Of a DNA stretch of 64,000 nt, positions 8,138 through 51,937 are shown piece after piece. A program made the position numbers and the translations under genes. The notes below the pieces were generated by a model. That model searched no databases. It was not told the origin of the DNA and was given only the letters and a program-made list of their open reading frames with translations. Numbering within the stretch: position 1 is the first letter of the stretch; each line of letters begins with the position of its first letter. Origin of the DNA: a bacterium (lineage in GTDB: Bacteria > Pseudomonadota > Alphaproteobacteria > Rs-D84); assembly GCA_014803525.1 (NCBI GenBank), contig JAAVBP010000002.1:6492-70491 (forward strand). The letters run 5' to 3'.

Positions 8138-8202
8138 TTTATCCCTCTCCACTCTTTTAGATATAATTATACCATAATTAAGCATGAGTATCGGTAAATA
8201 AT

Positions 8203-8231
8203 TTGCTTTTCTGAAAACAATCCGATATAAT
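8203..8231 (+). promoter_or_regulatory. Sigma70-type promoter of leader RNA copy 1
   Basis: TTGCTT (8203-8208), 17-nt spacer, TATAAT (8226-8231). Nearly identical to the promoter at 51646-51674. Confidence 0.75.
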
Positions 8232-8237
8232 GGTCGT

Positions 8238-8385
8238 GCATCGGGTGACGCCCGGTGCGAGGTGTAGTAACCTCCATAGTGATTCTCCAACTGTGGTTGG
8301 AGGGTCGTGATATATATGAATAAACGACACTATACTATGATAGTTACTAACCTCCAACCGCATCTCGTCAGTGCGGGCTTTTTTA
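8238..8385 (+). ncRNA. Structured leader RNA with intrinsic terminator, copy 1 (unclassified family)
   Basis: P1 8238-8258 (GCATCGGG/CCCGGTGC). Long-range P2 8265-8280 with 8334-8349. P3 8285-8302 (CTCCAAC/GTTGGAG). P4 8304-8328 with the 15-nt loop GATATATATGAATAA. CCTCCAACC 8351-8359 is complementary to the P3 3' arm. Terminator stem 8358-8376 plus T6 at 8379-8384. Same architecture at 51491..51640 and 24908..25100. Confidence 0.7.
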
Positions 8386-8387
8386 TT

Positions 8388-8436
8388 CCCCTCCAGGGCC
8401 CGACGGGGCCCGGTCGGAGGGGTGTCACGAAGTGAC
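8388..8436. repeat. GC-rich nested palindromic insertion between leader terminator and HTH gene
   Basis: CCCCTCC..GGAGGGG (8388-8394 / 8416-8422) encloses GGGCC..GGCCC, followed by the GTCAC-GAA-GTGAC hairpin. Absent from the equivalent position in copies 2 and 3. Confidence 0.5.
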
Positions 8437-8476
8437 GGGGAGGGTTCCTTGTCACGTGAAACATATGGAGGAAAAA

Positions 8477-8764
8477 ATGAAAAAGAAAGCAATCAATGAA
8501 ACAGCCGCACGCGTGGGGCACGCACTGCGCACAGCGCGTCAGACGGCACGCCTGACACATGGCGATTCCGCAGATTTGTTCGGTATAACAATGGAAGAGC
8601 AGTTGCAATACGAACGCGGCACTGCCCAAATACCAATTGAGCTTTTAGAGCATATGTTTGTAATGGGCTACAAACTGATTGGTATTCGGATATTAGAAAA
8701 AAAGTATCGAATCAAGCGTGACTTCATTCGTAAAATAAAACAAACAATAAAAGAGGGTATATAA
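8477..8764 (+). CDS. Small XRE/Cro-type helix-turn-helix protein (95 aa), paralog 1
   Basis: GGAGG SD 5 nt before ATG 8477. HTH pattern LRTARQTARLTHGDSADLFGITMEEQLQYERGT. Clear paralog of 51176..51466. Confidence 0.7.
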   Translation: MKKKAINETAARVGHALRTARQTARLTHGDSADLFGITMEEQLQYERGTAQIPIELLEHMFVMGYKLIGIRILEKKYRIKRDFIRKIKQTIKEGI

Positions 8765-8799
8765 ACTTTTTCACTGTTTTACTTTATAATTATTTAACT

Positions 8800-8830
8800 A
8801 AAAAATCCCGCCATTCGGCGGGGATTTTTT
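8800..8830. terminator. Bidirectional intrinsic terminator
   Basis: ATCCCGCC-ATTC-GGCGGGAT flanked by an A-run and a T-run, between convergent genes. Confidence 0.75.
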
Positions 8831-10265
8831 AATATGACTTGGCGACGAACACGTATGTCGGATCGGCATCATCCAGGCATCGACGTGATATCTTGAATTC
8901 ATCCATCAAGCCTTCGAATTCCGGTGACAAAGTCTGTTCATATTTCAGACGGAAAAATCCAATCTGGCCCGCGTCCAATGCCGCGCGCAAATCTGCAAGC
9001 GCATCAATATTGTGAATCATCGTTTCATTACGGGCCGCGGCCGCGTTATACATATCATGCTGCATGGAATCCAACATGCTGCGCACATCCGCAACAAACA
9101 CGTCCAAGTCCAACGTTTGTTTCGATGATTTGCCCAAATCACGACGTGTGACGGTAACCTGAGATGCATCCATTTCGCGTCCGCCGATTTCCACACGCAG
9201 TGGCACGCCACGCTTAATCCATTTCCACATTTTGTCGGCGCCACGCATATCAGATGTATCCGCCAAAACGCGAATGTCCGCCGCACGCAGTTTCGATGCA
9301 ATTTTTTCCGCGTATTCGTTCAGTGCATCTTCGTTCCCATCACGCGCAATTGGGATAATCACAACCTGGTGCGGGGCAACCGCCGGCGGCAGAATCAGAC
9401 CATCATCATCACTGTGTGTCATAAACAGGCCGCCCATCATACGCGTTGATGTGCCCCAGGATGTCGTCCATGCATGATGCAATTGGCCGTCGGTCCCCAG
9501 ATACTGAATCCCGAATGATTTCGAAAAATGCTGGCCCAGGTCATGCGACGTTCCGGCCTGCAGAGCCTTGCCATCTTGCATAATCTGTTCGGTGGTGTAT
9601 GTATGATCGGCACCGGCAAAGCGTTCCTCGGGCGTCTTTTCACCCATGATAACCGGTATTGCCAAAACATCGCGCATATAGTCTGCGTACAACTTATGCA
9701 TGCGGCGCGCGTCGGCGTTGGCCTCGGCATGTGTGGCGAATGCGTTATGCCCTTCTTGCCAATTAAATTCAGACGTGCGCAGGAACATACGCGGACGCAT
9801 TTCCCAGCGCATTACATTCACCCATTGGTTCAATTTCATCGGCAAGTCGCGATATGATTGCACCCAGCGGGACATCGCATCACCAATAATGGTTTCAGAT
9901 GTCGGGCGAATTATGTACGGATCTGTCAATTTTGATTCCGAATCGGGCTGCAGGTTGCCATCTATCATCTTTAAACGATAGTGTGTGACAACCGCCGCTT
10001 CTTTGGCAAAGCCGGCGACATGCTGGGCCTCGCGGTTAAAGAAATCGATTGGGATCAGCAATGGAAAGTTTGCATTCTGGACGCCGGTTGCCTTGATACG
10101 CCGATCCATCTCGGCCCGCATTAATTCCCAAATCGCCCATCCATATGGCTTTACCGTCATACATCCGCGAACGGGCGCGTTTTCCGCCAAATCTGCCGCA
10201 GTTATTAAATTCTGGTACCATTCGCTGAAATTTTCAGCGCGTGTGGGGGTTATTGCTGTCTTCAT
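8829..10265 (-). CDS. proS: Proline--tRNA ligase (archaeal/eukaryote-like type)
   Basis: N-terminus RAENFSEWYQNLI..VRGCMTVKPYGWAIWE, class II motifs, and a length of ~478 aa typical of this ProRS type. Confidence 0.88.
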   Translation of the reverse strand: MKTAITPTRAENFSEWYQNLITAADLAENAPVRGCMTVKPYGWAIWELMRAEMDRRIKATGVQNANFPLLIPIDFFNREAQHVAGFAKEAAVVTHYRLKMIDGNLQPDSESKLTDPYIIRPTSETIIGDAMSRWVQSYRDLPMKLNQWVNVMRWEMRPRMFLRTSEFNWQEGHNAFATHAEANADARRMHKLYADYMRDVLAIPVIMGEKTPEERFAGADHTYTTEQIMQDGKALQAGTSHDLGQHFSKSFGIQYLGTDGQLHHAWTTSWGTSTRMMGGLFMTHSDDDGLILPPAVAPHQVVIIPIARDGNEDALNEYAEKIASKLRAADIRVLADTSDMRGADKMWKWIKRGVPLRVEIGGREMDASQVTVTRRDLGKSSKQTLDLDVFVADVRSMLDSMQHDMYNAAAARNETMIHNIDALADLRAALDAGQIGFFRLKYEQTLSPEFEGLMDEFKISRRCLDDADPTYVFVAKSY

Positions 10266-24635: not shown

Positions 24636-24662
24636 AAACGGGGCAGATGCCCCGTTTTTTTT
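24636..24662. terminator. Intrinsic terminator shared by convergent genes
   Basis: ACGGGGC-AGAT-GCCCCGT followed by T8. Confidence 0.7.
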
Positions 24663-24885
24663 AATTCATTTTGTAAAGTTCCCATAAACGTAAAAGATAA
24701 TACAGCTCTAATGAGTTACCGCCCTCGCAATCCTTCAAGGCGTCTATGCTAATATCTGCCAGTTCGGATGCATTTTCCAGTGTCAATCCAAAATCCATAC
24801 GCACGGCCTGCAAGAATTTACCGTATTCTACGTTAAATTCCGCTTTTGTCTTTCCCTTTGTCCCTGATGCTGTTGTTTCGACCAT
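24661..24885 (-). CDS. Small XRE-type helix-turn-helix protein (74 aa), divergent paralog 3
   Basis: GAGGGAG SD before ATG 24885. FGLTLENASELADISIDALKDCEGG HTH pattern. Preceded by leader RNA copy 3. Confidence 0.6.
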   Translation of the reverse strand: MVETTASGTKGKTKAEFNVEYGKFLQAVRMDFGLTLENASELADISIDALKDCEGGNSLELYYLLRLWELYKMN

Positions 24886-24907: not shown

Positions 24908-25100
24908 AAAAAAGCCGTCAGTATCTGACGGCGATTGGAGGGACGAACTGTCAACTTTTTAGGAAAAACAGTGTGCTTTATTTATATATATCAGCACACT
25001 CCAATCGCCGTTGGCGATTGATGTTTTACAGCGCCGAAGCGCAAACCTAAAAAGTTGATGTGGGTTCGTCTACCCAATCTGAGCCGTGGCTCAGATACTG
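24908..25100 (-). ncRNA. Structured leader RNA with intrinsic terminator, copy 3 (divergent)
   Basis: On the minus strand: P1 25077-25096. Long-range P2 (GACGAAC/GTTCGTC and CAACTTTTTAGG/CCTAAAAAGTTG). Extra UUCG-capped hairpin 25031-25042. P3 25002-25020 (CAATCGCC/GGCGATTG). P4 24971-24999 with loop GATATATATAAATAA. CTCCAATCGCC (24930-24940) is complementary to the P3 3' arm. Terminator 24914-24932 plus a U-run. Confidence 0.65.
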
Positions 25101-25149
25101 GGAATGTTATACTATTTTTTGACAAGATTCAATAGGAATGTTTCCGCCC

Positions 25150-51175: not shown

Positions 51176-51466
51176 TTACGGTATTTCTGCAACGGTGTGT
51201 CTTAATTTATTAAACACACGGCGTTGACGACGATACCGGTCTTCCAGTGTGCGAACGCGTATCATTTTATAGCCCATAACAATTACGCGTTCCAATACAT
51301 CCGCCGGGATTTTTGTTGTACCGCGTTCGTATTCCAACATCTCGGTCGGGGATATCAACAGCATTTTTGCAACTTCGTCATGGGTCATATAACATATGCG
51401 ACGCGCATTGCACATAATTGCGCCCAGGCGCGATGCGGTTTCATCAATTGGTTTTTGTTTTTGCAT
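51176..51466 (-). CDS. Small XRE/Cro-type helix-turn-helix protein (96 aa), paralog 2
   Basis: SD and spacing identical to paralog 1 (GGAGGAAAAAATG). MTHDEVAKMLLISPTEMLEYERGTTKIP. Confidence 0.7.
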   Translation of the reverse strand: MQKQKPIDETASRLGAIMCNARRICYMTHDEVAKMLLISPTEMLEYERGTTKIPADVLERVIVMGYKMIRVRTLEDRYRRQRRVFNKLRHTVAEIP

Positions 51467-51490: not shown

Positions 51491-51640
51491 AAAAAAGTCC
51501 GCTTTGACGAGAAGCGGTTGGAGGTTAACAACTATTAAAGGTAATAGCGCTGTTTATTTATGTATATCACAGCCCTCCAACCAACGTTGGAGTTTCCTTT
51601 ATGAGGTTGTTAAGCCTCGCACCGGGCGTCACCCGATGCA
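51491..51640 (-). ncRNA. Structured leader RNA with intrinsic terminator, copy 2
   Basis: On the minus strand: P1 51619-51639 (identical to copy 1), P3 51575-51592, P4 51549-51573 with loop GATATACATAAATAA, CCTCCAACC (51516-51524), terminator stem 51499-51517 plus U6. Only ~25 nt to the HTH start codon. Confidence 0.7.
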
Positions 51641-51645
51641 TGCAT

Positions 51646-51674
51646 ATTATATCTGATTGTTTTTGGAAAAGCAA
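51646..51674 (-). promoter_or_regulatory. Sigma70-type promoter of leader RNA copy 2
   Basis: On the minus strand: TTGCTT (51669-51674), 17-nt spacer, TATAAT (51646-51651). Confidence 0.75.
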
Positions 51675-51683
51675 ATTATTATA

Positions 51684-51899
51684 GCCACCCCCCGATGGCA
51701 TTCGCCATCACCCCCCCGCCAACGGCGGTGGGAATTAGTACGTTCACAGCTCGGGCTAATGGCCCCCGCCCGGGCGGGGGCTGTCGCCAAGGGCGACTGG
51801 GGGTGGCCGTTTACGTACTTCCCTATATTTGCTACCCCCCCGCAGTCCACCCACAAAAACATTCGTTTTTGCGGGGCCCAGAAACGGCGGTGGGAATTG
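51684..51899. repeat. GC-rich composite palindromic repeats (units c-a-b-c')
   Basis: Unit c 51684-51742, a 51756-51783, b 51795-51822, variant c' 51831-51899. Same units as at 2909-3043 but in circularly shifted order. Confidence 0.75.
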
Positions 51900-51937
51900 C
51901 TCTGCGACATCATCTGCACTCTGAAAACTGAACTCTA

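Follow-up and report, generated by a model that had tools for sequence, protein, structure and literature searches.

What does a structured RNA do that starts at its own promoter and ends at its own terminator, directly in front of a small regulator gene? The question is raised by positions 8203-8764 of a 64,000-nucleotide (nt) stretch of an alphaproteobacterial genome of the Rs-D84 lineage (GenBank assembly GCA_014803525.1, contig JAAVBP010000002.1, positions 6,492 to 70,491; the whole stretch is called the window below), where such a leader precedes a gene for an XRE-type helix-turn-helix (HTH) protein of 95 amino acids (aa). An earlier note on this DNA had read the leader as one copy of a module with the layout of a terminator/antiterminator switch. 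Sequence comparison makes it likely that each copy is a self-contained, cis-acting transcription-attenuation cassette, OFF by default and either riboswitch-like or protein-controlled. The leader is an undescribed RNA family built on an already known type of device, the terminator/antiterminator.

Anatomy of the leader

Direct reading of the sequence confirmed all coordinates that the earlier note had assigned to this leader (copy 1), and the promoter-to-terminator structured RNA described there was borne out by the sequence, the RNAfold minimum free energy (MFE) structure and a terminator scan. The features of copy 1, with the evidence for each in brackets, are as follows.

8203-8208, + strand: -35 hexamer TTGCTT (sequence)
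8226-8231, + strand: -10 hexamer TATAAT, after a 17-nt spacer (sequence)
8238-8258, + strand: P1, the 5'-terminal hairpin (RNAfold, model alignment)
8259-8271 plus 8275-8281 with 8333-8339 plus 8343-8354, + strand: long-range helix P2/P2b (sequence)
8259-8273, + strand: toggle segment G-AGG-U-GUAGUAA-CCU (covariation, H2 counts)
8275-8281, + strand: segment X (CAUAGUG), 5' strand of P2b, with its partner 8333-8339 inside the P5 loop (RNAfold)
8285-8291, + strand: region 1, CUCCAAC, the 5' arm of P3 and anti-antiterminator (sequence, RNAfold)
8295-8303, + strand: region 2, GGUUGGAGG (covariation)
8304-8328, + strand: P4, with a stem of 5 base pairs (bp) (RNAfold, covariation)
8309-8323, + strand: conserved, AU-rich, 15-nt loop of P4, GAUAUAUAUGAAUAA (DNA GATATATATGAATAA)
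8329, + strand: junction nucleotide A8329, tertiary Watson-Crick partner of U8263 (mutual-information scan)
8330-8343, + strand: P5 hairpin CUAU...AUAG of the antiterminator state, whose loop is segment X' (covariation)
8344-8350, + strand: 3' strand of the P2 core, UUACUAA (covariation)
8351-8359, + strand: region 3, CCUCCAACC (DNA CCTCCAACC) (sequence, covariation)
8358-8376 (stem) and 8379-8384 (T6), + strand: intrinsic terminator (also called by the scan tool)

A generic promoter scan did not return the copy 1 promoter because its -35 hexamer agrees with the consensus at only 3 of 6 positions. Downstream of P1, several segments have two possible roles. AGG (8260-8262) can pair with CCU at 8271-8273, forming hairpin H2 of the antiterminator state, or with CCU at 8351-8353, forming the base of P2 in the terminator state; the GUAGUAA of the toggle segment is the 5' strand of the P2 core. 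Region 2 serves either as the 3' arm of P3 in the terminator state (in DNA letters, CTCCAAC at 8285-8291 with GTTGGAG at 8296-8302) or as the 5' strand of the antiterminator helix, and the final two bases of region 3 are the opening two bases of the terminator stem. The window contains the P4 loop motif three times, with 0.02 occurrences expected. The long-range helix that the earlier note had placed at 8265-8280/8334-8349 proved to be the core (8265-8281 with 8333-8349) of a longer one that reaches 8259-8281/8333-8354. All helices listed there stood, and missing from that list were the 5' GAGG(U)/CCUC pairing, H2, P5, a pseudoknot and the U8263:A8329 pair.

A large family in gut alphaproteobacteria

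The HTH protein of copy 1 has only 4 relatives among 5.8 billion proteins, and those of their short contigs that reach far enough upstream (L001, L002) carry the same leader. As the contigs of the protein relatives were too close to be informative, we switched to a DNA pattern scan with one genome per species (TTGGAG, the P4 loop, then CCTCCAA), which yielded at least 112 loci; all family-wide counts below rest on loci among the pattern-scan matches listed. A covariance model (R1), built from an alignment of 84 non-redundant copies (A3), matched 124 copies in 100 loci at E < 1e-8, so that the "three-copy module" of the earlier note is instead part of a large multi-copy family. About 19 of the R1 matches do not fit the original search pattern and are therefore free of its bias.

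Within the window R1 finds exactly three copies, at 8234-8383 (+), 51492-51643 (-) and 24908-25100 (-), here copies 1, 2 and 3, with bit scores of 135.7, 140.8 and 82.6; nothing in the rest of the 64 kb exceeds 22 bits, even with filters off. The covariance-model scan that the earlier note had suggested thus returned three window copies and many relatives in other genomes, and it matched both leaders that the note had likened to copy 1, ahead of 51176..51466 and 24661..24885. The MFE structure takes the terminator-state architecture in all three window copies (z = -4.7, -5.8 and -9.9).

Nearly all hosts are metagenome-assembled genomes (MAGs) from gut or rumen labeled Alphaproteobacteria, Candidatus Enterousia or "uncultured Rickettsiales". 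At least 12 copies are present in one MAG and at least 8 in another, next to three in the 64 kb of the window, which is syntenic with several leader-bearing MAGs at 72-84% nucleotide identity. A few loci lie in bins with other labels. One match (L035) is due to chance. Two loci (L009, L084) stand in a bin labeled Bacteroides fragilis and three (L036, L071, L104) in a Muribaculaceae bin; on these contigs the leader and the neighboring genes are typical of the same alphaproteobacterial clade, and the labels probably reflect bin contamination or mislabeling. An exact motif scan of the IMG/VR viral contigs gave 0 matches, hence no sign of the leader being phage-borne. In the order Rs-D84, which includes Enterousia, most genomes are smaller than 1 Mb, and the tricarboxylic acid cycle and respiration are lacking (PMC12306168).

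Two alternative folds covary

RNAalifold on A3 gave a consensus fold that differs from the single-sequence MFE fold. The antiterminator fold consists of P1, H2 (RGG:CCY), a 9-bp helix GGUUGGAGG:CCUCCAACC that joins regions 2 and 3 and encloses P4 and P5, and a shortened terminator. On the alignment of all 124 copies it is 98.2% paired, with double changes in 25 of 31 pairs, a result reached by 0 of 500 shuffles. The region 2:3 helix is 99.7% paired, with double changes in 5 of its 9 pairs, and overlaps the terminator stem by 2-3 nt, as expected of an attenuator in which alternative helices share bases. Its strands vary in concert in matches found by the model only (GGUCAGGAGG:CCUCCUGACC, GGCAGGAGA:UCUCCUGCC, GGUUGGAGU:ACUCCAACC, GGAUUGGAGG:CCUCCAAUCC and GGUUGGGG:CCCCAACC). 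A tenth antiterminator base pair was rejected (87 of 124 paired, 83.7 expected). Double changes affect all 7 pairs of P1 across the family; the closing pair of H2 is A-U in 43 copies, G-C in 39, G-U in 32 and A-C in 1 (Fisher p = 8e-10, ignoring phylogeny). P5 switches between CUAU:AUAG and CAAU:AUUG (31 cases), one UA pair (91) becoming AU (31) and another UA becoming CG (7).

Counted on the same alignment, the terminator-state fold is 95.3% paired, a figure not biased in its favor because the alignment was fitted to the antiterminator fold. Three P2 pairs (alignment columns 48:321, 49:320 and 50:318) are doubly changed in ~50% of sequences, with at most 2 unpaired cells. Column alignment of segments X (located after CCYC) and X' (inside the P5 loop) is not possible, and P2b was compared sequence by sequence: within a copy, the longest X:X' helix reaches a median of 8 bp, versus 5 bp with the X' of another copy. 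P3 is 95% paired and varies little in sequence. What is conserved in sequence is P3/regions 2-3 and the P4 loop, amid otherwise freely covarying helices. Two alternative partners exist for each of four segments: RGG, CCUC, region 2 and the first bases of the terminator. In our reading of the geometry, P2b and P5 would also be mutually exclusive, since the linkers flanking X' measure only 0-2 nt.

A mutual-information scan recovered all of these helices, extended P4 by pairs 253:289 and 255:288, and replaced a poorly fitting P2 pair (45:323, unpaired in 53 copies) by 46:323 and a tertiary pair, 45:290, between the nucleotide after RGG and the nucleotide between P4 and P5 (UA in 64 copies, CG in 38, AG in 12). 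The 45:290 association persists within the subgroup of long-form leaders, which carry an extra hairpin (P2c), and across dozens of helix contexts; it also separates copy 1 (U8263:A8329) from its close paralog copy 2 (C51614:G51548). The pair fits the geometry only if the loop of H2 is paired to the strand between P5 and the antiterminator, which is the P2 core, and thus points to an H-type pseudoknot. In the comparative model this pseudoknot turns a three-way junction into a four-helix junction. With the tertiary pair included, the pseudoknotted antiterminator fold comprises 39 pairs, is 96.5% paired and shows double changes in 34 of them. Covariation was retained in both folds once 124 copies were aligned, and the switch layout seen in the earlier note, with CCUCCAACC pairing to the 3' arm of P3 in place of the 5' arm and overlapping the terminator, is supported. 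Together, these comparisons support the conclusion that both conformers are under selection, and with it the interpretation as a switch.

Promoter and terminator are parts of the unit

Each unit consists of a promoter, a 5' hairpin, 150-190 nt of structured RNA and an intrinsic terminator. In 111 of the 118 leaders whose upstream sequence is long enough, there is a TAnnnT hexamer (exactly TATAAT in 60); it ends 6-7 nt before P1 in 92 of the 111, and TTGnnn stands 16-18 nt upstream of it in 79. This fixed distance argues that the promoter belongs to the conserved unit and that P1 is the very 5' end of the RNA. A canonical intrinsic terminator is present in 109 of 118 copies; in 99 of the 109, the stem opens with the CC of CCUCCAACC or with the A that precedes this CC. 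The G+C-rich hairpin and U tract lie directly upstream of an open reading frame (ORF), as in attenuators: a co-oriented ORF with a ribosome-binding site (RBS) follows 112 of 124 copies, at a median of 25 nt beyond the U tract. Because a gap of ~25 nt leaves no room for a promoter, the downstream gene depends on read-through.

A proposed switch

In the proposed mechanism, the sigma-70-type promoter of the unit would start the RNA at P1. In the terminator state, the 5' G-RGG would pair with CCUC and close the long P2/P2b helix, region 1 (CUCCAAC) would form P3 with region 2, and the CC of region 3 would open the intrinsic terminator (3:4), at which RNA polymerase would halt ~25 nt before the RBS. 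In the antiterminator state, RGG would pair with the nearby CCY as H2, the H2 loop retaining the P2 core as a pseudoknot; P5 and the Y:R tertiary pair would form, and the 9-bp region 2:3 helix would strip the first bases from the terminator stem, resulting in read-through into the gene. The toggle would be small, with RGG choosing between the CCU of CCUCCAACC and the nearby CCY, and region 2 between regions 1 and 3. Such logic would be that of the classical attenuator (1:2 / 2:3 / 3:4), to which RGG would add a second lock.

The terminator state is the computed optimum in 6 of 6 copies examined, and it is for this reason that we propose a default-off switch whose antiterminator needs stabilization. 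In short-form copies (those lacking P2c), the nested antiterminator fold is 1.7-4 kcal/mol worse before the terminator is transcribed; for copy 1 the terminator and antiterminator folds amount to -50.6 and -46.8 kcal/mol. We infer from these sequence-based data that termination is regulated, with OFF as the default, and that an effector exists. For read-through, the effector would stabilize the pseudoknotted antiterminator junction or destabilize P3/P2; candidates are a small ligand or second messenger, or an RNA-binding protein. A small-molecule or second-messenger effector would agree with the architecture of the junction, with the number of copies and with a gene set that is not metabolic. 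Ribosome-mediated control through a leader peptide was rejected: no short-ORF AUG is conserved, as AUG reaches at most 28 of the 124 copies in any alignment column.

Several points weigh against this interpretation. In long-form leaders the nested antiterminator fold, with the pseudoknot uncounted, is 13-35 kcal/mol worse, so the antiterminator would need the pseudoknot and/or a factor, and in general it takes just 2-3 bp off the terminator stem. Termination and read-through are predictions from sequence. Most family members were collected by an exact pattern that forces TTGGAG, GATAT, AATAA and CCTCCAA, and the covariation statistics ignore the relatedness of the sequences. Finally, the upstream units of tandem arrays, which have their own promoter and no ORF, also fit a stand-alone small RNA (sRNA).

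Genes behind the leader

The earlier note had taken the RNA plus an HTH gene as the unit of conservation, which turned out to be too narrow: about half of the downstream genes encode XRE-type HTH proteins, and the other half mostly signal-peptide or Cys-rich surface proteins, outer-membrane proteins (OMPs), two type II DNA methylases and a PLD nuclease. The genes behind the window copies and three further examples are listed here.

8477-8764, + strand: copy 1 gene, 95-aa XRE/Cro-C1-type HTH protein, with RBS GGAGG at 8467-8471
51176-51466, - strand: copy 2 gene, 96-aa XRE-type HTH protein that shares 43% identity with the protein of copy 1
24661-24885, - strand: copy 3 gene, 74-aa HTH_31-like protein
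L102 2375-4495, - strand: leader, C5 DNA methylase, then an overlapping 354-aa ORF, probably the restriction enzyme of a type II restriction-modification operon
L030 1182-2415, - strand: leader ahead of an EcoRI-type methylase
L054 2349-3120, - strand: leader ahead of a PLD-family nuclease resembling DrmC

The small downstream proteins form one XRE superfamily, with subfamilies 20-40% identical to each other, and their HTH profile matches Xre regulators, PezA, C.BclI and P22 C2 (best E = 5.9e-9). Those of the window score 15-18 bits against Pfam HTH_3, HTH_19 and HTH_31, for which the curated cut-offs are 23-30 bits. Among 111 downstream proteins, 36 match HTH_31 (E < 0.01, best 9e-11), 16 HTH_3 and 15 HTH_19, in overlapping counts; Listeria-Bacteroides repeats account for 5 matches, OMP beta-barrels for 2, and the EcoRI-type methylase, the C5 methylase and the PLD nuclease for one each. 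Most of the remaining proteins are unannotated and have a signal peptide, often with many Cys residues. Leader form and gene class are associated: short-form leaders precede 37 small HTH proteins and 4 signal-peptide proteins, long-form leaders 39 signal-peptide proteins, 19 small proteins and 12 others. In long-form leaders, P2c often consists of GUGUCCGUGGGGACA followed by an A-rich linker (L006, L030, L048; window 25017-25061), and P2c with GUGUCCGUGGGGACA is largely confined to leaders of signal-peptide genes.

The AlphaFold model of the copy 1 protein (predicted local distance difference test, pLDDT, 82) shows a three-helix HTH domain plus a 41-residue basic C-terminal helix and resembles solved structures of C.BclI, ClgR, HipB and Aca2 at template-modeling (TM) scores of 0.5-0.7; controllers of restriction-modification systems are among its best fold matches. 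The long, Arg/Lys-rich C-terminal helix (residues 54-94, KKYRIKRDFIRKIKQ), for which the conserved pattern across the 95-aa subfamily is (K/R)(K/R)Y(R/H)xxR(R/K), may serve dimerization or nucleic-acid binding. Promoters of the same subfamily have a common spacer motif, AATCCGA, just upstream of the -10 hexamer (window 8209-8225 and 51652-51668; spacers of L015, L110, L095 and L108), which in L015 and L110 forms the palindrome GGATTTAATCC. This motif could be an autoregulatory DNA operator specific to the 95-aa subfamily.

A leader-HTH unit adjoins the ortholog of proS in three species (window 8200-10265, L082 27-5465, L100 9-2887). Each of the three has HTH proteins of a different subfamily (95 aa in the window, 74-85 aa in L082, 70 aa in L100), a pattern that suggests gene turnover behind a retained leader.

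Comparison with known RNA families

The earlier note had recognized no named RNA family in the leader, and indeed neither the window nor seven other loci gave a match at the Rfam gathering score that overlaps a leader. Over the window, Rfam 15 at gathering threshold returned only 2 tRNAs; at 8150-8800 the best E-value was 0.46 (a spurious let-7 match), with nothing meaningful at E <= 10. In the literature on Enterousia, Rs-D84 and XRE-associated RNA motifs we found no description of the element; the candidates of Fremin and Bhatt 2021, who noted only that HTH-XRE genes are common near unnamed candidate RNAs, could not be compared.

For the 3' half of some copies, the highest-scoring Rfam family is sRNA-Xcc1 (RF02221), described as a trans-acting sRNA: two of the seven other loci reach 29.4 bits (L074, 608-681, -) and 30 bits (L045, 1644-1721, -) against a gathering score of 53, and copy 1 has no match. 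Both RNAs have a three-way junction with a 9-bp G/C-rich closing helix (GGNNGGNGG:CCNCCNNCC), two hairpins and a 6-nt joining strand, and sRNA-Xcc1 likewise lies directly upstream of protein genes, namely symE in integron cassettes and ORF6N in APSE phages. A scan for the sRNA-Xcc1-like pattern gave mostly chance GC-rich matches and one convincing example, L137, which, unlike the leader, lacks the upstream region 1, P1 and P2. On 38 viral loci with the pattern, L137 included, R1 had no match at E <= 10. Given the sub-threshold scores and the missing reciprocal detection, homology was rejected, and the resemblance is one of topology only. Its place directly upstream of symE and ORF6N genes means that sRNA-Xcc1 may itself be a 5' leader and not a free sRNA.

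Classical attenuators such as the trp leader, and terminator-type riboswitches, share with the element described here the strand-sharing anti-antiterminator (P3), antiterminator (2:3) and terminator (3:4), as well as an intrinsic terminator directly upstream of the RBS; like riboswitches, its units also occur in tandem. It differs from classical attenuators in having no leader peptide, a sensing domain interwoven with the platform, a second lock (RGG with either of two CCY) and a promoter conserved within the unit. Riboswitches for c-di-GMP of class I (GEMM) exist in many copies per genome and serve regulators, surface or secreted proteins and other non-metabolic genes. The leader resembles them in copy number, in the non-metabolic genes served and in its multi-helix junction with tertiary contacts, but has a different fold and matches no Rfam riboswitch. 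T-box leaders are likewise long, multi-helical and based on a choice between terminator and antiterminator; the leader, however, matches no T-box in Rfam, lacks both specifier loop and T-box bulge, and does not precede aminoacyl-tRNA-related genes.

Aca2 and Aca1 are HTH regulators that bind hairpins within the 5' untranslated regions (UTRs) of their own transcripts (PMC13551039), and in acr-aca operons, too, a conserved structured 5' UTR precedes a small HTH gene. The Aca motifs comprise a simple hairpin or two, with effects on translation or stability, whereas the leader is a bistable, terminator-based RNA of 150-190 nt that also serves many non-HTH genes and for which protein binding is conjectural. 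In comparison with these systems, the integral promoter, the pseudoknotted double lock and the very high copy number in a reduced genome are unusual, as is a regulon of regulators, surface proteins and restriction-modification genes.

Further copies, tandem arrays and repeats

The two other window copies, identified from sequence, RNAfold and R1, are organized as follows.

51492-51674, - strand: whole leader of copy 2
51669-51674 and 51646-51651, - strand: copy 2 promoter, -35 TTGCTT and -10 TATAAT
51619-51639 and 51574-51582, - strand: copy 2 P1 and 5' strand of the antiterminator
51549-51573, 51532-51547 and 51516-51524, - strand: copy 2 P4, P5 and CCUCCAACC
51499-51517, - strand: copy 2 terminator stem, with the U tract to 51492
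24908-25132, - strand: whole leader of copy 3, which is divergent and of the long form (extra hairpin P2c)
25106-25111 and 25077-25096, - strand: copy 3 -10 TATAAC, in a less clear promoter, and P1
~24999-25009, 24973-24997 and 24948-24971, - strand: copy 3 region 2 (GGCGAUUGGAG), P4 and P5
~24930-24940 and 24915-24934, - strand: copy 3 region 3 (CUCCAAUCGCC) and terminator stem

The tertiary pair of copy 2, C51614:G51548, is the counterpart of U8263:A8329, and regions 2 and 3 of copy 3 differ from those of copies 1 and 2 by changes that match each other. Elsewhere in the family, 2-4 units form tandem arrays.

L087 1881-2526, - strand: array of three units
L054 2939-3735, - strand: array of four units, some of them partial
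L063 1648-2076, + strand: tandem array
L075 1068-2126, - strand: tandem array
L038 375-788, + strand: tandem array
L113 ~415-650, + strand: tandem array

In the two arrays that were read (L087 and L063), every unit has its own promoter and terminator and an ORF follows the last unit only.

Between the terminator and the HTH start codon of copy 1, a three-copy alignment shows a GC-rich palindromic insert (8386-8448, + strand) that copies 2 and 3 lack. A second promoter within it was rejected, as the sole promoter-like match (8449-8478) would initiate downstream of the ATG. Two GC-rich palindromic repeats containing TTCCCACCGCCGTT (51721-51734 and 51883-51896) lie upstream of the copy 2 promoter, within 51700-51900; these and the insert look like small elements of the repetitive extragenic palindromic (REP) or miniature inverted-repeat transposable element (MITE) type.

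Alternative explanations

A more specific version of attenuation, in which the small XRE HTH proteins bind the P3/region 2 hairpin or the P4 loop and thereby both autoregulate HTH genes and control surface-protein genes in trans, appears rather unlikely. It draws on the XRE superfamily filling about half of the downstream positions, on the almost exclusive pairing of short-form leaders with HTH genes (37 versus 4), on the Aca2/Aca1 precedent, on the presence of Aca2 among the fold matches of the copy 1 protein with its long basic C-terminal helix, and on the conservation of P3/regions 2-3 and the P4 loop amid freely covarying helices. Conservation of regions 1-3 is, however, also expected from their three-way pairing constraint, and the RNA motif is nearly invariant although the HTH subfamilies share only 20-40% identity. 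The type of P4 loop does not follow gene class, and since XRE proteins normally bind DNA, RNA binding is here conjectural.

A device without effector, be it a leaky-terminator 5' UTR that stabilizes the transcript or a kinetic sensor of polymerase speed, nucleoside triphosphates or temperature, is clearly improbable. The 5'-terminal hairpin P1 is typical of stabilizing 5' ends, little energy separates the two folds in short forms, and the genes served are very diverse; an elaborate conserved pseudoknot, a tertiary pair and an invariant 15-nt loop nevertheless exceed the needs of a leaky terminator, and both alternative folds are under selection. Very unlikely, too, is a stand-alone, trans-acting, multi-copy sRNA with incidental read-through into the downstream gene. 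Its own -35/-10 elements and intrinsic terminator, the ORF-less upstream units of tandem arrays and the trans-acting description of the best (sub-threshold) Rfam match would suit such an sRNA. On the other hand, 112 of 124 units have within ~25 nt a co-oriented RBS and ORF without a promoter of its own, the antiterminator helix, H2 and P5 covary despite being incompatible with the terminated fold, and no conserved single-stranded seed is evident besides the P4 loop.

That the palindromes act solely as DNA operators for HTH proteins, with incidental RNA structure, is hardly credible: P3 is a perfect conserved inverted repeat (CTCCAAC-N-GTTGGAG) ~50 nt past the start site and before HTH genes, but its invariant half-sites are spaced by 5-14 nt, which a dimer of fixed geometry could not accommodate, and this reading of P3 was rejected on that ground. 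In addition, P1, P2, P2b, P4, P5 and the terminator change in sequence yet keep their pairing, G-U pairs are tolerated, and half of the leaders precede non-HTH genes. A MITE-like mobile element was likewise rejected, given the constant order promoter-RNA-gene, the compensatory divergence and the absence on inspection of flanking target duplications.

Significance

The cis-acting attenuation cassette is a well-supported orphan structured RNA with comparative evidence for both switch conformers, which is rarely obtainable for expression platforms. The switch is compact, carries its own promoter and terminator, and lends itself to study by in vitro transcription or with reporters. The genes behind the leader (for regulators, Cys-rich surface proteins and OMPs, and for restriction-modification) point to control of the cell surface and of host/phage interactions. 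Riboswitches are thought to be a dominant mode of regulation in other streamlined genomes. Tentatively, and at somewhat less than even confidence, we suggest that the leader is the main gene-control device of the reduced-genome Rs-D84/Enterousia lineage, a new class of effector-sensing RNA that would gate a regulon of at least a dozen units made up of XRE regulators, surface proteins and restriction-modification genes. If an unrecognized small signal were sensed, this would be a new riboswitch class with a pseudoknotted four-helix junction; if XRE HTH proteins acted as RNA-binding anti- or pro-terminators, dual DNA/RNA binding of the Aca2 type would extend to transcription attenuation. The identity of the effector would thus reveal a new signaling molecule or a new route by which HTH proteins control transcription via RNA, and with at least 12 copies in a genome of ~1 Mb, the leader may be a dominant regulatory mechanism of this uncultured gut lineage.

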